From a bacterium (GTDB lineage Bacteria; Calditrichota; Calditrichia; RBG-13-44-9; J042): 64,000 nucleotides of DNA. The notes beneath the pieces were generated by a model. The model had not been told where the DNA came from. It saw only the letters and a program-made list of their open reading frames with translations, and did not search any database. The stretch is from assembly GCA_015485355.1 (NCBI GenBank), contig WFTQ01000084.1:10104-74103 (forward strand). Reading direction: 5' to 3'. Numbering within the stretch: position 1 is the first letter of the stretch; each line of letters begins with the position of its first letter. Below, one piece after another: positions 9,405 through 21,891 of the stretch. The translations under genes were made by a program, and so were the position numbers.

Positions 9405-10445
9405 TTAAAAGGCCGCGTAAACGGTCATTCGGGGGATAACGTCCGGTTTTAAACCCGCCGCCCCCAGGAATTCGCTGTACAAAATGCTTTCTACATTCGG
9501 CATCAGGTGAAAGTTTTTTATGATCCGATAATCCAGGCCTGCCAGAATCAATAACGCCGGGTTGTCCGGATTAAATGGAAGGTAGGCGATGCGATAGCCT
9601 GCGGGACTGGGATCAAAAAGGCGATCGAGCCTCAGAAACAATTTTTTAGAGGGCGATATGTCCCAGGCGGCAAAGGCGGAAACCATCTCCAGGGTCAGGA
9701 AATCCCGGCCGGGCCGTTGCCGCACCTGACGGGCCCATTGTAAGCCCACCCGAGCATGCGGCCAACGGTATCCCACAATGAGTTGTAGCGTCCACCGATC
9801 GTTCCTCCTCCCCCGAAGATCATCGTAATCGGCGTAAACTTCCACCAGAGGCCCGAATTCCGGATAGTAACCCAGTGCCAGCATGAATTTTTTTCCCAGA
9901 TTTTCCTCGCCGGCCACACCTTTTCCGTTCCCCACCATGACATGAAACTGGATAGGCAAACCCGGCAGACCGCCCCGAATCGCAATGCCCATATCCCGGG
10001 TGCTTCCCCATTGATGCAAGTCCAGGGGAGTCTTCTCCACGGGCCGATATCCCCACAAACGCTCAATCCAGACAAAGGTAGGCGTGGGAGCTATACCCAG
10101 ATACACCTCGGTGCCTTTGTAAACCCATTTTAAATACGCATCCTTGACATAGGGAACGGCGGCACCGGAAACAAATCCGTTCCGATAGGTATTCAACCCT
10201 CCCGGATGATTCATTTCCAGTCGAAAACGGAAAGCCCATTGAGGCGATAACACCCGATCGTAGGTAAAATAAATGCGCCGTATCCAGAATCCGTTCATCC
10301 GTTGCAAACCTGGTAGATGATGGTTGACGATCCAGAAATAATCGCCAAACACGAGGCCACTCAAACGGCCGGATGGCTGGCCAATTCCCGAAAAGGCCGG
10401 TGTCAGCAGCAACCAGCATCCTATCCACCAGAAACGATGCCGCAT
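9405..10445 (-). CDS. putative outer-membrane beta-barrel/porin, hypothetical
   Basis: 346 aa with signal peptide (MRHRFWWIGCWLLLTPAFSG), alternating aromatic/hydrophobic beta-strand pattern and C-terminal aromatic residue (...VYAAF), typical of OM beta-barrels. Proximity to pst operon suggests a phosphate-type porin, but this is not demonstrated. Confidence 0.4.
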   Translation of the reverse strand: MRHRFWWIGCWLLLTPAFSGIGQPSGRLSGLVFGDYFWIVNHHLPGLQRMNGFWIRRIYFTYDRVLSPQWAFRFRLEMNHPGGLNTYRNGFVSGAAVPYVKDAYLKWVYKGTEVYLGIAPTPTFVWIERLWGYRPVEKTPLDLHQWGSTRDMGIAIRGGLPGLPIQFHVMVGNGKGVAGEENLGKKFMLALGYYPEFGPLVEVYADYDDLRGRRNDRWTLQLIVGYRWPHARVGLQWARQVRQRPGRDFLTLEMVSAFAAWDISPSKKLFLRLDRLFDPSPAGYRIAYLPFNPDNPALLILAGLDYRIIKNFHLMPNVESILYSEFLGAAGLKPDVIPRMTVYAAF

Positions 10446-12279: not shown

Positions 12280-13263
12280 ATGGAGCCGTTGAAACGCAGT
12301 GGATTCACATTCATCCGGCTGTGGGTGATTCTGGGTTTACTGACCCATCTGTGGGCCCAGAGTATTCAAGTCGACGCGGACCTCCCCCGGTATAAAAAAG
12401 TTCGTGGAATCCGCGGGAATGCCAACAGCATCGGTTCGGACACGATGAACAATTTAATGACCCTATGGCTGGAGGGATTCAAGAAGTACTATCCGATGGT
12501 GAACATTCAGGTGGAAGGGAAGGGGTCGTCCACCGCCCCGCCGGCCCTGATCGAAGGGATCGCCCAATTCGGTCCCATGTCTCGTAAAATGAAGGCCAAA
12601 GAAGTGGATGCCTTTGAGAAAAAATATGGATTCAAACCCACCGAAATTCGAGTAGCATTGGACGCCTTGGCGGTATTTGTCAATCGGGACAACCCTTTAG
12701 ATTGTTTGAGCCTGGAAGAACTGGACGCCATCTTTTCTTCCACCCGTAAGCGGGGCTATCCGGAAAACATCACCCGATGGGGCCAACTGGGCTTAACCGG
12801 CGCATGGAGCAACAAGCCCATCAGCATTTTCGGACGCAACTCCGCCAGCGGTACATACGGGTTTTTCAAAAAGATCGTCCTGAGAAAAGGCGATTATAAA
12901 AACATCGTTAAAGAGCAACCCGGATCCGCTTCGGTGGTTCAAGGAATCACCGAAGATCGTTACGCCATCGGCTACAGCGGCATCGGCTACATCACTTCCG
13001 GAGTGAAAGCGCTGGCCCTGGCCAAGAAAAAGGGTGCGCCGTGTTACCACGGCACTTATGAAAATGTGATCGCTAAAAAATATCCCCTTTCCCGATACCT
13101 GTACATCTACATCGTTAAAACCCCCAATAAACCCCTGGATCCCCTGGTGAGGGAATTCCTAAAATTTGTTCTGAGTTACGAAGGTCAAAAGATCGTTGCC
13201 AAAGATGGATATCTTCCCTTGCCGGCCAAGGTGGTCCAGGAAGAACGAATGAAACTGCAATAA
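12280..13263 (+). CDS. pstS: phosphate ABC transporter substrate-binding protein PstS
   Basis: 327 aa with signal peptide; PBP-like domain with motifs GSSTAPPALIEG and RDNPLDCLSLEELDAIFS typical of the PstS family. First gene of the pstSCAB-phoU cluster. Confidence 0.85.
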   Translation: MEPLKRSGFTFIRLWVILGLLTHLWAQSIQVDADLPRYKKVRGIRGNANSIGSDTMNNLMTLWLEGFKKYYPMVNIQVEGKGSSTAPPALIEGIAQFGPMSRKMKAKEVDAFEKKYGFKPTEIRVALDALAVFVNRDNPLDCLSLEELDAIFSSTRKRGYPENITRWGQLGLTGAWSNKPISIFGRNSASGTYGFFKKIVLRKGDYKNIVKEQPGSASVVQGITEDRYAIGYSGIGYITSGVKALALAKKKGAPCYHGTYENVIAKKYPLSRYLYIYIVKTPNKPLDPLVREFLKFVLSYEGQKIVAKDGYLPLPAKVVQEERMKLQ

Positions 13264-13299
13264 TTCCGGGATGAATGGATCAGCCGAAGACTAATCAAG

Positions 13300-15525
13300 A
13301 TGATGAAGCCGAAGAGATCGCTTAGCACGGACATCTCCTCTTTTCGTCTACGGACCTATCGCAGGGACCGCCGGGCCCGCTGGATCATCACCCTGGCCGG
13401 ATACGGCATCATTCTGAGCATCGTTCTGATTTTCGTTTACCTGGTGAAAGAAAGTCTGCCGCTTTCCTTTGGGGCTTCGGTTCAAAAATGGTTCGGCTGG
13501 GGACTGCCTCGGGATGAAAACGTGCTGCTCACCGGTGTCGATTCTTATCAGGAAGTGGTATACGTCCTGACCGCCGGGGGCAAGATCAAATTTTTCCGGA
13601 TGCGGGACAAGGCTTTAATTCAACAGGACTCCCTGCCGTTGTTTCCGGGCGAACACCTCCTCAGCGCTTCCAAAGGCAGCCTTCAACAGGAATGGTTCGC
13701 AGTGGGCACCGATTCAGGACGCATTTTGACCGCTCTCATCCGGTTTATCCCCCACTATACCGACACAGGCAGAGTCATTCTGCCCCAAACCTCTCTTGAA
13801 GAAACTTTTTTCGCCGATCCCGGGCAGGCGGCGGGCCATGTGGAACGTTTGGTATTTCGCCGAAACGAAGAAGGGCAACGCTTCTGGCTCTGGGAAACCC
13901 ACACCGGAGAACTGTTTCTGCGACATTCCGACACGGAATTTGAAGAAGTATATCGGGTCAGCATTCCCAGGCCATGGGGTGAACACACCCTCACGGCGTT
14001 GACCATGAGCTATAGCGGAGAACATATCGCCTTCGGCACTTCCGGCGGAGAGGTGTACTGGTTTCGTTATGCCGACGGCGAGGTGGTTTTGCAGGATCGT
14101 TTTCAGGAAAGCGAAATGCCCGTGAGTGCTCTGTCCTATTTGATTGGAGATAATGCCCTGGTCGTGGGCGACACGGACGGCCGGGTGAGTGTTTGGTTTC
14201 CGGTTTACGGTCCCAGTCAGATTTACAAAATGCAACCGATTCATCGATTTCGTTCTCACCCGGCGGCCGTGGAACAAATCTATCCGTCCCCCAGAAACCG
14301 AAACTTTTTAACCATCGACACCCGGGGCAATGCTCATCTGAATTATTCAACCACCGGCCGCACCCAGCTGGAATTTCAGCCGGCTTCCAATCGCATCCAG
14401 GCCGCGGCCATTGCTCCCAAAGCGAATGGCATCGTGGTGGTCGATGCCCAACATCGGATCGGCCATTTTTTGCTGGATAATCCTCATCCAGAAATCACCC
14501 TGAAAACCCTTCTGGGCAAGGTCTGGTACGAAGGTTATCCCCGCCCCGCATTCGTCTGGCAATCCACGGGGGGCTCCGATGCCTTTGAACCCAAATTCAG
14601 CCTGGTTCCCTTGATTTTCGGCACCTTTAAGGGGACGCTCTACGCCATGGTCTTTTCCGTTCCTCTGGCCCTGCTGGCAGCCATTTATGTTTCCCAATTC
14701 GCCCCCTACTGGCTGTCTCGGCTGGTCAAACCCACCGTAGAGATCATGGCCGCCCTGCCCAGCGTGGTCATCGGGTTTCTGGGGGGACTGTACTTCGCAC
14801 CCTTGTTCGAACAACACCTGACCGCCATATTAATCTTCTTGATCATGCTGCCCGGGGTTTTTCTGATTTTCATTCTGGGTTGGCGCCAGGTTCCCGAATC
14901 CCATCGCCTGCGAATTCCCATAGGATGGGAACTGTGGTTTACCATTCCGGTGGCCCTGCTGGCCATCAGCCTTTCCCTGACGCTGGCTCCATACATCGAA
15001 CAGGGGTTCTTTGGCGGCGATTTAAAACAATGGATCTATATGACGCTGGGAATGACCTACGATACCCGCAACAGCATTGTGGTAGGATTTGCCCTGGGGT
15101 TTGCGGTCATTCCCATCATCTTCACCGTTGCGGAAGATGCCCTCAGTAACGTGCCGGATTCGCTCACGTCGGCATCGCTGGCGCTGGGGGCCTCCCGCTG
15201 GCAAACGGTCCGACGGGTGGTGTTGCCCGCCGCTGCCGGCGGGATATTCGCCGCGGTTATGCTGGGTTTCGGCCGCGCCGTGGGCGAAACCATGATCGTG
15301 TTGATGGCCACCGGCAACACCCCCATTATCGACCTGAGTCCATTCAATGGCTTTCGCACTATGAGCGCCTGCATCGCCGTGGAAATTCCCGAGGCCCCTG
15401 TAGGCGGCACCCTCTACCGGGTCCTCTTTTTAACCGCCCTGTTGCTGTTTACATTCACCTTTATCATCAACACCCTGTCCTCCGTGGTTGGAGAACGGTT
15501 GCGCAAAAAATATGCGAGATTTTAA
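13300..15525 (+). CDS. pstC: phosphate ABC transporter permease PstC with large N-terminal periplasmic extension
   Basis: 741 aa. The C-terminal ~310 aa form the PstC-like permease core (6 TM, EAA-like loop, ALGASRWQTVRRVVLPAAAGGIFAAVMLGFGRAVGETM). The N-terminal ~430 aa carry one TM (WIITLAGYGIILSIVLIFVYLV) and then a beta-rich repeat domain (VVYVLTAGGKIKFF, GGEVYWFRYADGEVVL, VVGDTDGRVSVWFP). Confidence 0.8.
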   Translation: MMKPKRSLSTDISSFRLRTYRRDRRARWIITLAGYGIILSIVLIFVYLVKESLPLSFGASVQKWFGWGLPRDENVLLTGVDSYQEVVYVLTAGGKIKFFRMRDKALIQQDSLPLFPGEHLLSASKGSLQQEWFAVGTDSGRILTALIRFIPHYTDTGRVILPQTSLEETFFADPGQAAGHVERLVFRRNEEGQRFWLWETHTGELFLRHSDTEFEEVYRVSIPRPWGEHTLTALTMSYSGEHIAFGTSGGEVYWFRYADGEVVLQDRFQESEMPVSALSYLIGDNALVVGDTDGRVSVWFPVYGPSQIYKMQPIHRFRSHPAAVEQIYPSPRNRNFLTIDTRGNAHLNYSTTGRTQLEFQPASNRIQAAAIAPKANGIVVVDAQHRIGHFLLDNPHPEITLKTLLGKVWYEGYPRPAFVWQSTGGSDAFEPKFSLVPLIFGTFKGTLYAMVFSVPLALLAAIYVSQFAPYWLSRLVKPTVEIMAALPSVVIGFLGGLYFAPLFEQHLTAILIFLIMLPGVFLIFILGWRQVPESHRLRIPIGWELWFTIPVALLAISLSLTLAPYIEQGFFGGDLKQWIYMTLGMTYDTRNSIVVGFALGFAVIPIIFTVAEDALSNVPDSLTSASLALGASRWQTVRRVVLPAAAGGIFAAVMLGFGRAVGETMIVLMATGNTPIIDLSPFNGFRTMSACIAVEIPEAPVGGTLYRVLFLTALLLFTFTFIINTLSSVVGERLRKKYARF

Positions 15526-15528
15526 ACG

Positions 15529-17187
15529 ATGAAGGATCGACGAATCAGCTATTTCCGGCAAAAAGGCGATGCCTACATCATGGGTACCAGCCTCGGACTG
15601 GTATTGTCGTTGCTGATGGTCGCTTTCATCCTGGGCGTCATCCTGGTAAAGGGACTGGGCTTTTTCTGGCCCTCGGACCTGCTGTATTTACAGTTAAAAG
15701 ACGGTAAACACTACCTGGGTGAGGTAACCGACCGGGAAGAAAGCGTTCGCTTCTCCGAGTCCGGAGAGCCGCTGCACATACAAGAGGTTCAGTTAAAGAT
15801 CGGAAACCGCGATCTGTATGGGCTGGATTTTGTTTGGATTGACCTGAGCGATGTAGTTGAGCAGACCTATCCCGCCCATGCCATCACCATTGAACGTCTG
15901 GAATACGGGAATTTTTATGGATTTCCCCAAAAGGTGCGATGGGGGGAGCGCCAGTGGGAGGTTCACCATCCCGATTTCCCCCAACAGCTGCGCCGGTTGC
16001 ATCACCAGGCGGTGGCCAACCGCAAGCAGATCGCCCGCCTGGAAAAACAGCTGAATCGATTGTTGGAGCCGTTATCGCACGTCGAAAGAGCGATTTCTCT
16101 GCTGGAAATCTCTCCCGAGGCCCAAACGCCGGAGGGGCGACGGAAAATGCAGCAACTGGAAGAACAAATTCGGCAGCTGGAAACGGCGATCCGTGAACCC
16201 TACACGCGCCTGACCCGGCAACTGGAAAGCCGATATCAGGAGAATCGGCAACTGGTCCTGTCCCTGATCACGGCCGACAAGCAGGTAAAGGAAATTCCCC
16301 TGGAAAAAATCGTGCGATGCTATTTTCCCAATCAGATGGGCTTTTTTCAGAAAGCGAGCCTGTATGCCTCCAAATTATGGGAATTCGTCTCCGCCGATCC
16401 CCGGGAATCCAACACCGAGGGGGGAATTTTCCCCGCCATTTTCGGCACGGTATTGATGGTCCTGATCATGTCCATTGCCGTGGTGCCTTTTGGTGTGCTG
16501 GCGGCCATATATCTGTGCGAATATGCTCGTCCCGGCCCGGTGGTACGTCTGATCCGCCTGTCGATTAACAATCTGGCGGGGGTACCGTCCATTGTTTTCG
16601 GCATATTCGGTCTAAGCTTTTTCATATATATGATCGGAGGGAGCATCGATCAATTATTCTTCAGCAGCAAGCTGCCCGAACCCACCTTTGGAACGGGCGG
16701 TATCTTGTGGGCTTCCTTGACCCTGGCGTTGCTTACCCTGCCTGTGGTGGTAGTGGCCACAGAAGAAGGCATTCTGGCGGTGCCTCAGGCCAACAAAGAA
16801 GCGGCGCTGGCCCTGGGGGCCACCCGGTGGCAGATGATCCGCAAAATCATCCTACCCAATGCCATGCCCGGTATTCTAACGGGTCTAATCTTGGCGATCA
16901 GCCGCGGAGCCGGGGAAGTGGCCCCCTTAATGATCACCGGGGTGGTGAAACTGGCACCCTCCCTGCCACTGGATACCACCTTCCCCTTTCTGCACCTGGA
17001 TCGCAAATTTATGCATCTGGGATTTCATATATACGATGTGGGATTTCAGTCGCCCAATGTGGAGGCGGCCAAACCCATGGTCTACACCACCGCCCTTCTG
17101 CTCATCCTATTGGTGGTGGTATTAAACCTGATCGCCATACGCATGCGCAATCACTTACGTAAAAAATATAAAATGGCCGCTTTTTAA
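15529..17187 (+). CDS. pstA: phosphate ABC transporter permease PstA with N-terminal periplasmic/coiled-coil insertion
   Basis: 552 aa. The C-terminal core carries the PstA signature ([46 protein letters not shown]). The N-terminal ~260 aa after the first TM include a heptad-like coiled coil ([30 protein letters not shown]...[14 protein letters not shown]). Confidence 0.8.
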
Positions 17188-17203
17188 AACAACAGGGGTT
17201 CCT

Positions 17204-18046
17204 ATGGTAGAGGTCAAAAAAGTGGACACCGAAGTGCAACTTCAATTTAAGGTTCCGGAAACCGATTATAACTCGATACTGGAAGGCGAAAACGTTGTCA
17301 TCGAGACCCTTCACCTGAATTTCTATTACACACCCGAGGTTCACGCATTAAAAGCTATTACCATTAAGATTCCCGAAAAGAAGGTGACCGCGTTCATCGG
17401 GCCCTCGGGGTGCGGAAAATCCACCCTGCTTCGTACCTTTAACCGGATGAACGACCTGATCCCCGGGGCTTATTTAACCGGCAAAGTGCTCATCGAAGGT
17501 CAGGACATCTACAGTAACAACATTCGTCTGGAAGAATTGCGTAAAAAAGTGGGCATGGTGTTTCAGAAATCCAATCCTTTTCCCATGTCCATCTGGGAAA
17601 ATGTGGCCTTCGGCCCGAAGGTCAACGGCATAACCGATAAGTCCCTCCTGGACGAGATGGTGGAATCCGCGTTAAAGCAGGCGGACTTATGGAAAGAAGT
17701 GAAAGACCGCTTGCATCAATCGGCGCTGGATTTATCCGGGGGACAACAACAACGGCTATGCATTGCCCGTACTCTGGCCAACAAGCCGGACATCATTTTA
17801 ATGGACGAACCCGCTTCGGCCCTGGACCCCATTTCCACGGGAAAGATTGAAGAAACCATCGAGGAATTAAAACAAAATTATACGATTGTGATAGTCACCC
17901 ACAATATGCAGCAGGCCGCAAGAATATCGGATTATACCGCGTTTATGATGCTGGGAGAATTGATCGAATACGACAAGACCAAGACCATTTTTACCAACCC
18001 CAAAGTGAAGCTGACAGAGGATTATATTACCGGGCGGTTTGGATAA
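17204..18046 (+). CDS. pstB: phosphate ABC transporter ATP-binding protein PstB
   Basis: 280 aa. Walker [10 protein letters not shown], signature [16 protein letters not shown], Walker [13 protein letters not shown]-loop VTHNMQQA. Strongly PstB-like throughout. Confidence 0.9.
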
Positions 18047-18104
18047 TTCCCGAAAATGCGGTAAAATAAAACCATCGGTTCCAATGAAGCGGGAGAAACC
18101 CCAC

Positions 18105-18764
18105 ATGAAAGAGAAAATGAAGCAATTGTTGGACAGCATCAAAAAGGATATCATTTATCTGGCCAACGAAGTGGAACATGCGTTGCGGCAGTCCATGAAA
18201 GCGTTAGAAAAACAGGATGTGGAGTTGGCCCGTATGGTCATCGAAAACGACACCGAGATCGATAAACTGGAAGTAAAGATCGAGGATCAAATTCTCACTC
18301 TGATGGCCTTACAGCAACCGGTGGCCATTGATCTGCGATTTATTGTGGCCGGATTGAAAATGAACAACGACCTGGAGCGAATCGGCGATCACGCGGTCAA
18401 CATATCCCAAACGGCCATTCAGCTGGCGGGAGAGCCGTATATCAAGCCTCTGGAAGATTTACCCCGTATGAGCGAAATTGCCTGCGACATGCTGCATGAA
18501 GCGGTCAATTCCTTCATTTATCAAGATACCGAACTGGCCCGGCAGGTCTGTGCCCGGGATACGGAGGTGGACGAACTGTACAGTAAAGTGGTCAATCACC
18601 TCATCGAAGTGGTGAAGGGCAAAATCGACAAATTGGAGCAGGCGTTTGCCCTGGCGCGGGTGGCGCGGGATTTGGAGCGCGTGGCCGACCTGGCCACCAA
18701 CTTGTGTGAAGACGTGGTCTTTATGAAAGAGGCCAAAATCATTCGTCATCATATGGAAAAGTAG
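18105..18764 (+). CDS. phoU: phosphate signalling complex protein PhoU
   Basis: Two repeated PhoU three-helix-bundle halves with conserved E/D-x-x-x-D motifs (VIENDTEIDKLE, CARDTEVDELY). The ORF track starts at 18039; ATG 18105 (or 18084) is the more likely start, preceded by GGGAGA. Confidence 0.85.
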   Translation: MKEKMKQLLDSIKKDIIYLANEVEHALRQSMKALEKQDVELARMVIENDTEIDKLEVKIEDQILTLMALQQPVAIDLRFIVAGLKMNNDLERIGDHAVNISQTAIQLAGEPYIKPLEDLPRMSEIACDMLHEAVNSFIYQDTELARQVCARDTEVDELYSKVVNHLIEVVKGKIDKLEQAFALARVARDLERVADLATNLCEDVVFMKEAKIIRHHMEK

Positions 18765-19182: not shown

Positions 19183-21891
19183 ATGAGGCTTTTTCAGGTA
19201 ATGTTACTGGTGTTATGGTCCGCATCGGTGGCGTTTGGTGGTATCATCAAGGGAGTGGTAAAAGATGCCACCACAAACGAGCCACTGATTGGCGCCAATG
19301 TCGTCCTGGTGGGTTCGGCCATGGGCACCATTACCGATGAGGACGGCTTTTTCATCCTGGAAAACGTGCCCGAGGGGAAGTGGCGCATTCAAATCACTTA
19401 CCTGGGCTATATCGATTTTTCCAGGATGATTACCGTGGGGTCCAAGGAAGTGAGCATTGAAGCCCTGTTACAGCCCACTGTTTTCGAAGGACAGGAGATT
19501 GTGGTCGAGGTAAACCGCGCCAAGGAACGGCAGACCCCGGTCACGTTTTCGGAAGTCGACCAGGACGAAATCTTACGGCGTTACGCCACTCAAGACGTCC
19601 CCGACTTGTTACGGGCCATCCCGGGGGTGTTCACCACCACATCGGGATTGGGAGAAGCCGAAATTCGCATTCGCGGATTCGACCCGGAACACATTCAAAT
19701 CATGATCAACGGCGTTCCCGTCAATGATCCCGAATCCCAATGGGTCTATTGGTCGAACTGGACCGGTTTATCCGGAAACGCCGCCTCGATTCAGGTACAG
19801 CGGGGTGTGGGGGCCTCTCTGGTGGGTTCCGGTGCATTCGGGGGTTCGGTCAACATCGTTACCGGACGCTACTCGGCCACCCCCACCTTGACGCTCCGCA
19901 GTTCCGTGGCCGGTTACTGGACCCAAGGGGGGTACCTGGGAACCAATCGCGTTGCCGATGGTCTGGGCGGTTCTCAAACCTACAATCCGTTTAACGAAGC
20001 ATTTTCCATCGATTATATCTCGGGCTTACTGGCCGACGGCAAATTGAATCTGTACCTGCGGTACGAACGCAAGGCCGGGGATTATTACATCGCCAATACG
20101 TACTACAACGGCCATTCCTTCTACCTGGGCCTGCAAAGCATTCTGGGTAATCATGTGATTACTTTTAATGCCCACGGGGCTCCGCAGCGACACAACCAGG
20201 CCCGGAGCATGCAGGACATGAACCTGTTGAAAAAATTAGGCCGGGAGTACAATCGGTACAATCACCCTTACCAGGAAAACTACTACTTCAAACCGCAATT
20301 TGAACTGCATCATGATTGGGCGATCAACGACCGCTCGTTTTTGAAAACCAATGCCTTTTTAACCTTTGGCCGCGGTGGGGGACGTTACCTGAGAAACGAC
20401 TACTTCGATGTCAATACCGGTCAGGTGGGTTTTAAATCGGTCTCTCCGGCCACCGATGCCAAATATTTTGGCCGTCATGCCCGTTTTATTTACGAAATGA
20501 CCGGCCAGGCGCTCACCGGCTACAACCCCACCACCAACGAGTTCATCTACAACGGAGACACCACCACCGTCTCCAAGGCGCGAAATCTGATCAGCAGCAC
20601 CTACGCCCACTCCTGGCGGAACGATTCCCAAAACCGCCACTTCCAATACGGATTCAATACGGCCTATCAAAATAAATTGACCGACGTGGTGACCGTTACC
20701 CTGGGTGGAGAAGCCCGATACTGGAAGGCACGGCATTTTGCTCAGTCTTTCGACTTCCGCATGTATGACGTCAACACGGGATCGGTAAAACGACTGGATG
20801 AGGTTCAGTTGCGTTACGATTACGACGGTATTGTGTTGAATACCTCGGTATTCGGCCGCTTGCTGATCCATCCGATCAAGGACCTGACCATCATGCTTGA
20901 CGGACAATTCGCCCGCTACTCTTCGCGGGTGGAAGAACGGCCCATTCGGGTATTCGATTTCGGTGCCCAGAAATGGACCGACATTTTTTACTATCAAACC
21001 CAGGACCTGAGGGATGAAAACGGCAACCGTATTTACAAGGACAGCGACTACCAGCGCGTCTTCACCTTCTTCATGCCCAAGGCCGGCTTCAATTACAACA
21101 TCACCCAGGAATTTAATGTCTTCGGCAACGTCAGCGTGTCCAAAAAAGAACCCAAAACCGGCGACTGGTACAGCCGTTCCAGAGGACCGGGTGCCAACCA
21201 GCCCCGTGACGATCAGGGCAACATCATTCAGTTGAAACCCGAAAGTTTGACCAACTTTGAAGCCGGAGTGGGTTATTATGGTCGATATCTCATTCTCAAG
21301 GCAAACGCTTACCTGATGAACTTCGAAGATAAAATCGAACGGGTCATCGACCAAGCCGGGGAACTGGTTACCATCAATGCCGGGAAGGCCCGTCACATGG
21401 GTCTGGAACTGGAAGCCCGGTTTCGGTATCGACGATGGGATGGATTGCTTTCCGCCACTTACGCCCGAAACCGCTGGCGAGCCATGAATGTCCAGAAAAT
21501 CTTCGGTATCGACCAGGAAGACGTGGTGAACAAGGTGGTACCCTTTGCTCCGGAACAGATTCTCAACGCCGAACTGGGTTATAACATCAAGAGTTTCCGA
21601 CTGGGACTTTCCACCCTCTTTTGGGATGAATATTATGGAAATTACGATAACACCGCAAAACTGCCTGCTTATCTGGAACTGAACGCCGTGGTGGCCTATC
21701 ACTTCAAGCTGGCCGGTGCGGAAGTGGATATCCGTTTAAACCTGAACAATCTGTTGAACCGGGAAAATTACACCCGTGCTGCATGGACCCGGGATTTCAA
21801 CCGCAATGACAATCTGGCCGGGGTTTACAACATGTATGTGGTTCAGGCACCGTTATTCCATACTTTTCTGACTACTCAGATCACCCTGTAA
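19183..21891 (+). CDS. TonB-dependent outer-membrane receptor (CarboxypepD_reg-like N-domain + plug + 22-strand barrel)
   Basis: 902 aa. Signal peptide, N-terminal GIIKGVVKDATTNEPLIGANVVLVGSAMGTITDEDGFFIL (carboxypeptidase-regulatory-like fold), plug-domain motifs (IRIRGF, INGVPVNDPE), and a C-terminal aromatic terminus typical of TBDRs. Confidence 0.85.
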   Translation: MRLFQVMLLVLWSASVAFGGIIKGVVKDATTNEPLIGANVVLVGSAMGTITDEDGFFILENVPEGKWRIQITYLGYIDFSRMITVGSKEVSIEALLQPTVFEGQEIVVEVNRAKERQTPVTFSEVDQDEILRRYATQDVPDLLRAIPGVFTTTSGLGEAEIRIRGFDPEHIQIMINGVPVNDPESQWVYWSNWTGLSGNAASIQVQRGVGASLVGSGAFGGSVNIVTGRYSATPTLTLRSSVAGYWTQGGYLGTNRVADGLGGSQTYNPFNEAFSIDYISGLLADGKLNLYLRYERKAGDYYIANTYYNGHSFYLGLQSILGNHVITFNAHGAPQRHNQARSMQDMNLLKKLGREYNRYNHPYQENYYFKPQFELHHDWAINDRSFLKTNAFLTFGRGGGRYLRNDYFDVNTGQVGFKSVSPATDAKYFGRHARFIYEMTGQALTGYNPTTNEFIYNGDTTTVSKARNLISSTYAHSWRNDSQNRHFQYGFNTAYQNKLTDVVTVTLGGEARYWKARHFAQSFDFRMYDVNTGSVKRLDEVQLRYDYDGIVLNTSVFGRLLIHPIKDLTIMLDGQFARYSSRVEERPIRVFDFGAQKWTDIFYYQTQDLRDENGNRIYKDSDYQRVFTFFMPKAGFNYNITQEFNVFGNVSVSKKEPKTGDWYSRSRGPGANQPRDDQGNIIQLKPESLTNFEAGVGYYGRYLILKANAYLMNFEDKIERVIDQAGELVTINAGKARHMGLELEARFRYRRWDGLLSATYARNRWRAMNVQKIFGIDQEDVVNKVVPFAPEQILNAELGYNIKSFRLGLSTLFWDEYYGNYDNTAKLPAYLELNAVVAYHFKLAGAEVDIRLNLNNLLNRENYTRAAWTRDFNRNDNLAGVYNMYVVQAPLFHTFLTTQITL

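Follow-up and report, generated by a model that had tools for sequence, protein, structure and literature searches.

Long-form PstC and PstA permeases of the Pseudomonas aeruginosa type, with a predicted folded domain in the first periplasmic loop of each, at a Calditrichota pst locus

The DNA analysed here is a stretch of 64,000 nucleotides (contig WFTQ01000084.1 of assembly GCA_015485355.1, positions 10,104 to 74,103), referred to below as the window. The subject is the operon for a Pst phosphate importer that it carries at 12280-18764 on the + strand, and in particular the two long permease genes of this operon, pstC and pstA. The operon consists of five genes in the order pstS-pstC-pstA-pstB-phoU:

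12280..13263, + strand: pstS, 327 aa, periplasmic phosphate-binding protein (TIGR02136; Pfam PBP_like_2)
13300..15525, + strand: pstC, long form, 741 aa
15529..17187, + strand: pstA, long form, 552 aa
17204..18046, + strand: pstB, ATPase subunit, 280 aa (Pfam ABC_tran)
18039..18764, + strand: phoU, open reading frame (ORF) of 241 aa (Pfam PhoU, two domains)

PstS has a signal peptide, without a lipobox, and scores 254.3 bits with the NCBIfam model TIGR02136 (cut-off 206.6). Its closest public relative, sharing 92% identity, is a protein of a Calditrichaeota metagenome-assembled genome (MAG), and the 120 best relatives are all at least 69% identical. Calditrichia and Caldithrix MAGs were also the nearest genomes in a scan of species genomes. 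PstC scores 207.1 bits with NCBIfam TIGR02138 (equivalog cut-off 196.45), in two stretches parted by an insert, and has a MetI-like core with an EAA coupling loop, Pfam BPD_transp_1 matching residues 545-735. PstA scores 252.2 bits with NCBIfam TIGR00974 (equivalog cut-off 193.45), its residues 284-544 matching profile positions 36-271 of 272. Phosphate transport by PstA is a putative function, assigned from homology and operon context. In the public gene calls pstC starts one codon later (740 aa) and PstA has the same 552 aa. The phoU ORF begins at a TTG that overlaps the end of pstB, while public starts lie at about 18084 or 18105 (219-226 aa); the true start position of this gene is uncertain. 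A scan for promoters and terminators gave nothing above shuffled expectation.

A first-pass annotation of this DNA, made from the letters alone, gave exactly these coordinates and lengths for the two permeases. It also pointed out that canonical subunits of about 300 aa are much shorter, which is borne out by the solved Escherichia coli subunits (PDB 9k3s, 9k3x, 9k3y; PstC 319 aa, PstA 296 aa). In each protein it described one N-terminal transmembrane (TM) helix followed by a long soluble region and then a core of six TM helices, and it regarded the soluble regions as N-terminal add-on domains. The topology given here is based on hydropathy and on alignment with the E. coli subunits. PstA has six hydrophobic helices in all (22-40, 309-327, 355-373, 392-410, 440-458 and 519-537), and therefore the first of these is TM1 of the canonical six. 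A soluble stretch of ~265 aa follows this helix, and E. coli PstA can be aligned only from window residue 289 onward (E. coli 68), inside the TM1-TM2 loop. In PstC an Arg-rich cytoplasmic N-terminus lies ahead of TM1 (28-49), after which comes a soluble stretch of ~395 aa. Alignment with E. coli PstC (9k3s_B) covers window residues 417-507 and 593-736, resuming at 417 (E. coli 55). The helix followed by a long soluble region is thus as first described, but TM1 belongs to the core and is not extra to it. The extra domains are insertions in the periplasmic TM1-TM2 (P1) loop of each subunit, after core TM1, instead of N-terminal additions. In PstC the following parts were distinguished:

13381..13446, + strand: TM1, residues 28-49; hydropathy peak 2.47
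13447..14478, + strand: P1-loop insert, predicted 7-bladed WD40-type beta-propeller, residues 50-393 (AlphaFold2, Foldseek)
14479..14601, + strand: post-propeller linker and P1-loop tip, residues 394-434 (NPHPE...GKVWYEGY...VWQSTGGSDAFEPKFS)
14635..14799, + strand: TM2 and TM3, residues 446-500 (aligned with E. coli PstC 71-143; hydropathy)
14824..14988, + strand: predicted extra TM hairpin, residues 509-563, its two segments joined by a loop of positive charge; hydropathy peaks 2.92 and 2.04
15076..15477, + strand: TM4-TM6 and cytoplasmic EAA coupling loop, residues 593-726 (aligned with E. coli PstC 171-314; BPD_transp_1)

The corresponding parts of PstA are:

15592..15648, + strand: TM1, residues 22-40; hydropathy peak 3.02
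15649..15975, + strand: first beta part of the insert, residues 41-149, with conserved motifs including GLGxFWP and ERxEWGNFYG
15976..16248, + strand: predicted antiparallel helical hairpin, residues 150-240, with helices of ~45 and ~40 residues
16249..16392, + strand: second beta part of the insert (three strands) and closing helix, residues 241-288 (AlphaFold2)
16393..16425, + strand: P1-loop tip, residues 289-299, nearly invariant
16453..17139, + strand: TM2-TM6 and EAA loop, residues 309-537 (Pfam, E. coli alignment, hydropathy)

PstC differs from its E. coli counterpart at a second place as well. The gap between TM3 and TM4 is 85 residues long (508-592), compared to 27 residues in E. coli PstC (144-170), and contains two strongly hydrophobic segments (509-527 and 545-563). 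Both segments were found in 59 of 60 long PstC homologues, in a region of near-constant length (median 79 residues). The loops joining the two segments contain 232 Lys and Arg residues against 47 Asp and Glu residues, which by the positive-inside rule makes the segments a TM hairpin with a cytoplasmic loop. Judged by hydropathy and conservation, long PstC is an eight-TM protein, with TM1, TM2-3, the extra hairpin and TM4-6.

The insert of PstC (residues 50-435) was modelled with AlphaFold2 on an alignment of 91 sequences, with a predicted local distance difference test score (pLDDT) of 91.1 and a predicted template modelling score (pTM) of 0.90. The model has 28 beta strands, four in each of seven blades, and one of its beta-hairpins, at model residues 92-122 (protein ~141-171), is unusually long. 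A Foldseek search with this model against the PDB gave 1939 matches at expectation values (E) <= 0.001, and all 50 matches displayed were WD40-type beta-propellers. The top matches (G-beta, Swd1 and a bacterial WD40 domain) had E values of ~1e-14, target-normalised template modelling scores of 0.65-0.75 and sequence identities of 9-14%. At the sequence level all Pfam propeller models stayed far under their thresholds for this insert, the best being PF23414 (32.9 bits, threshold 90), with PF00400 at 15.3 bits (threshold 27). The region had been called propeller-like in the first-pass annotation, and these models agree with it: an all-beta, 7-bladed WD40-type propeller is predicted. The highest conservation within the insert region is found directly behind the propeller, in residues 394-434, which form invariant or nearly invariant columns among the 91 sequences. 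In this segment VWQSTGGSDAFEPKFS (419-434) is aligned with E. coli PstC 57-69, and the wider correspondence between window residues 417-434 and E. coli 55-69 takes in D63, a cross-linking site to PstS.

The insert of PstA (residues 40-299), modelled with AlphaFold2 on an alignment of 76 sequences, reached a pLDDT of 94.9 and a pTM of 0.86, so that both inserts are predicted to be folded domains. The order of elements is beta strands, a two-helix antiparallel hairpin, three strands and a closing helix. The hairpin helices (model residues 111-155 and 162-201, pLDDT 97-98) have hydrophobic residues in heptad-like spacing, in a poorly conserved sequence, and from the helix lengths the hairpin is estimated to be ~6 nm long. 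The coiled coil proposed earlier for this protein is thus recovered as a long hairpin set into a beta domain, and the insert as a whole is predicted to be a domain of small beta-barrels out of which this hairpin extends. Foldseek returned no match for the PstA insert among solved structures at E <= 0.001; the best partial matches, none of which reached this threshold, were to Sm-like, Tudor or chromo small barrels over 60-90 columns. The tip (290-299) is aligned with the P1 loop of E. coli PstA (69-78). In Nitrospira PstA (470-503 aa) the beta domain is kept but most of the hairpin is deleted, leaving an 84-residue gap (L030:8049-9560), and a hairpin deletion was also seen at the loci L031, L032, L038 and L068. 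The hairpin therefore is an optional sub-module.

Proteins with such inserts are widespread. Searches matched 514 database proteins with the PstC insert and 121 with the PstA insert; those that carry a name in their source are entered as permeases, of phosphate transport or of ABC transporters, or as hypothetical proteins. They come from Calditrichaeota, Nitrospirae, Rokubacteria/NC10, anammox Planctomycetes, Ignavibacteria and Latescibacteria, and further from Acidobacteria, Dadabacteria, Verrucomicrobia and delta- and gamma-proteobacteria. The architecture was found in at least 595 species genomes (one genome per species was scanned, and 595 of the 600 stretches listed were confirmed). When the PstA insert was searched exhaustively and without a profile, the outcome was 764 clusters (50% identity) at E <= 1e-3, of which 312 at E <= 1e-10, and the domain nearly always begins 35-60 residues into the protein, right after TM1. 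The fetched loci keep the order pstS-pstC-pstA-pstB-phoU. Wherever a long pstC was followed by a separate gene, this gene was an insert-bearing pstA (71 of 71 loci). Across phyla, the long-form operons (L008-L081) show median identities of 63% for PstS, 62% for PstB, 43% for PstC and 51% for PstA, while the inserts have medians of 33-34% and are most conserved at their junction segments.

One of the organisms with this form is Pseudomonas aeruginosa. Its genome (NZ_CP070468) has pstS, a 677-aa 'ABC transporter permease subunit' (WP_003123734.1), a 558-aa pstA product (WP_003096667.1), pstB and phoU. BLASTP alignments with the P. aeruginosa proteins run continuously through the inserts, for PstC at 39% identity over window residues 76-739 (E 5e-149) and for PstA at 45% identity over residues 2-548 (E 2e-161). 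With the PstC insert alone, tblastn found the P. aeruginosa gene at E 5e-30 and 93% coverage. The RefSeq start of P. aeruginosa PstC (677 aa) falls after TM1 (L081:1468-1800), and the in-frame sequence upstream of it encodes a homologous TM1 (RWYVLVGGLAVLAAITLIFFYLAYVV). The annotated protein is probably truncated N-terminally by ~85 residues. The window permeases are almost certainly long-form PstSCAB importer subunits of the P. aeruginosa type, with a folded domain in each P1 loop just upstream of the loop tip.

Since the P. aeruginosa proteins align through the inserts, the architecture is known to the databases and is part of an experimentally studied Pst system. It had been suggested at first that the added domains may not be described for this lineage. 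For the architecture this does not hold: it is neither new nor lineage-specific, being present in at least 595 species of many phyla and in P. aeruginosa, and the window carries an ordinary example of a widespread group. For the domains themselves it does hold. In the window proteins neither insert falls under a Pfam or NCBIfam model, and in the P. aeruginosa proteins neither falls under a Pfam model. No Pfam DUF or COG family for long PstC or PstA came up in these scans, and a text search by COG number gave nothing. The literature search, which did not take in the 1996 account of the P. aeruginosa operon (PubMed 8628229), found no description of either domain, and no paper characterising these domains was found in the literature on P. 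aeruginosa Pst. The E. coli PstSCAB cryo-electron microscopy paper contains no mention of Pseudomonas, 'insertion' or 'additional domain' (PMC12976172).

The location of the inserts gives an indication of what they may do. In E. coli PstSCAB, either permease subunit has its TM1 lying against TM2-6 of its partner, and docked PstS receives the P1 and P3 loops of both in the cleft between its lobes (PMC12976172). A cross-link was obtained between PstC D63 and PstS K167, and PstA touches the C-lobe of PstS through its Pro 73 (PMC12976172). Each insert ends directly at the P1-loop tip homologous to that of E. coli. It follows from these end points and from the E. coli layout of TM1 and P1 that the inserts should stand beside the PstS docking platform, probably on its opposite flanks. 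Transport itself would proceed as in E. coli, with PstS handing inorganic phosphate to the PstC/PstA pore and PstB hydrolysing ATP. In the reading favoured here, the inserts may act as a cradle for PstS loaded with phosphate, capturing it, orienting it or keeping it on the transporter, in the way the periplasmic P2 domain of MalF serves the maltose-binding protein. The position of the loops suggests such contact and a possible effect on uptake; as a mechanism the cradle is a tentative proposal that falls a little short of being probable. Among the functions first proposed for the domains, which were gating, sensing of substrate and docking of PstS or of an adjacent porin, PstS docking is plausible and the best supported, on account of the P1-loop position. 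The conservation of PstS, which matches that of the ATPase and exceeds that of the permeases, would fit a larger interaction surface; these figures refer to long-form operons only.

Several points weigh against a docking cradle. Contact with PstS is deduced from the position of the loops. The conserved residues of the propeller are mostly the structural Gly, Asp and Trp of WD-type blades and mark no binding face, and the hairpin, missing in Nitrospira, cannot be essential to a common mechanism. The conservation of PstS comes without a comparison set of short-form operons. Moreover, E. coli and many other bacteria take up phosphate with high affinity without such domains.

It could be that the inserts have a structural role only, stabilising or assembling the heterodimer of eight and six TM helices or clustering Pst complexes, with no contact to PstS or substrate. 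The co-occurrence of the inserts with the extra TM hairpin of PstC, which implies that the whole membrane part has been remodelled, and the strict co-inheritance of both inserts agree with this. However, short forms assemble without inserts, and a position directly at the loop tips that contact PstS would be odd for a purely structural domain. We regard this role as unlikely.

A sensory or regulatory module is a still weaker candidate. The inserts would then sense a periplasmic cue (phosphate species, ions or the state of the envelope) and modulate gating or the signal from Pst to PhoU and PhoR. phoU is always adjacent, Pst is known as the phosphate sensor for PhoR, and the beta domain of PstA has invariant charged residues (R55, D61, E83, R84 and E86 in insert numbering). 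Against these stand the failure of Pfam, NCBIfam and Foldseek to recognise a ligand-binding fold or motif, the role of WD40 propellers mostly as platforms for protein interaction, and E. coli signalling, which needs no such domain. A sensory function is judged improbable.

It is equally doubtful that the inserts form a link to the envelope, in which the propeller or the PstA hairpin would reach the peptidoglycan or an outer-membrane phosphate porin and so site the importer under the porin or hand over phosphate or PstS. A beta domain broken by a long helical hairpin recalls, in layout only, the periplasmic adaptors of efflux pumps, and nearly all source names belong to Gram-negative phyla. A conserved outer-membrane-like protein is encoded beside pstS in eight fetched loci and nearby in the window, but such a porin-like gene is absent at most loci. 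No adaptor protein was among the 50 matches displayed for the PstA insert, none of which reached E <= 0.001. There is a single hairpin per transporter and no ring; at an estimated ~6 nm the hairpin is short compared to a periplasm ~20 nm wide, and in Nitrospira it is absent. A related picture, in which the propeller and the barrel and hairpin form a cage that holds one PstS captive or couples to an outer-membrane phosphate porin, is judged to have a similarly low probability. If true, it would mean a mode of delivery in P. aeruginosa and many environmental phyla unlike the free-diffusing binding protein of E. coli.

The porin-like gene of the window is a 346-aa ORF at 9405-10445 on the - strand (297 aa as called publicly); its N-terminus resembles a signal peptide and its last residue is Phe. 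It gave no sequence match in Pfam, NCBIfam or the PDB. At eight loci of Latescibacterota, Gemmatimonadota and Acidobacteriota (L013, L015, L018, L043, L048, L056, L064 and L077), a homologue with 31-34% identity is encoded immediately ahead of pstS and in the same orientation. The product is a candidate outer-membrane protein with a link to phosphate, belonging to a family not described before, and is probably the adjacent porin of the first-pass annotation.

The two reading frames themselves were compared with other public sequences. The region between the start of pstS and the end of phoU (6485 bases) has 5 substitutions and 0 indels relative to the window in two other public assemblies, and the exact PstA sequence is present on 5 public contigs, including a 109,911-base ENA scaffold and the NCBI MAG GCA_027016595.1. 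The first-pass annotation had raised the artefact in which an upstream gene is fused to each permease by a frameshift or assembly error; with the frames continuous and free of indels in the two other assemblies, the same continuous architecture in P. aeruginosa and over 70 other genomes, TM1 required for the canonical six-TM topology, and nothing found in its favour (some database entries show the reverse, long forms split by frameshifts), such a fusion is excluded for practical purposes. Two apparent variants were rejected. 'Auxiliary subunit' proteins in which the PstA insert stands alone (P0211, P0224) and a 510-aa PstC, at first sight split or intermediate forms, are in their genomic context pieces of long genes that were broken up by frameshifts or gene-call errors. 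Database proteins of ~200 aa that go under the name 'ABC-type phosphate transport system auxiliary subunit' represent the N-terminal part of long PstA, cut off by frameshifts. At L082:5001-6594 two PstA pieces overlap, and at L083 several genes are split.

Directly downstream of phoU, at window positions 19183-21891 (+ strand), lies a gene for a TonB-dependent receptor with an N-terminal carboxypeptidase-regulatory-like domain, for which a link to phosphorus scavenging is possible. Weak relatives (28% identity, in the N-terminal part only) are encoded near pstS on the opposite strand at L014, L015, L020 and L077.

Bacteria rely on Pst as their main importer of phosphate at high affinity and as a phosphate sensor, and in pathogens it is a determinant of virulence. 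Structures have been solved for the short E. coli form only. In the long form the periplasmic part is larger by ~650 residues and there are two more TM helices; P. aeruginosa, nitrifiers and anammox bacteria have this form, as do many uncultured phyla. Should the domains hold or select PstS, the mechanism known from E. coli could not be carried over directly to these organisms, and the domains would be exposed, lineage-specific targets. The Pst system of the window is a further case of a known and widespread architecture that is functionally uncharacterised, and the question it raises is not specific to the window.

Of the known systems, P. aeruginosa Pst is the one that shares gene order, both inserts and their positions, the extra TM hairpin and the junction motifs with the window, although its inserts are only ~27-31% identical to those of the window and it belongs to a different phylum, the window being closest to Calditrichota MAGs. 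E. coli PstSCAB (9k3s, 9k3x, 9k3y; Nat Commun 2026, PMC12976172) is homologous in its TM core, in the EAA loops and at the P1-loop tips, and its transport cycle is presumably the same. However, its PstC and PstA have six TM helices each and short P1 loops, without propeller, beta/hairpin domain or extra TM hairpin, and its PstS is of subfamily TIGR00975 whereas that of the window is of TIGR02136. With the 7-bladed WD40 propellers, such as G-beta, Swd1 and the Thermomonospora WD40 domain 5yzv, the PstC insert has the fold of seven blades of four strands in common, but unlike these it sits within the loop of a membrane permease. The periplasmic propellers BamB and TolB are further relatives of this insert in fold. 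MalF of the maltose transporter MalFGK2 resembles long PstC in being a type I ABC importer subunit with eight TM helices and a large folded periplasmic domain, an analogy and not a homology. Its P2 domain, which caps the docked maltose-binding protein, has an immunoglobulin-like fold and lies between TM3 and TM4 of one subunit only, whereas the window inserts lie between TM1 and TM2 of both subunits and are predicted to have propeller and beta/hairpin folds.

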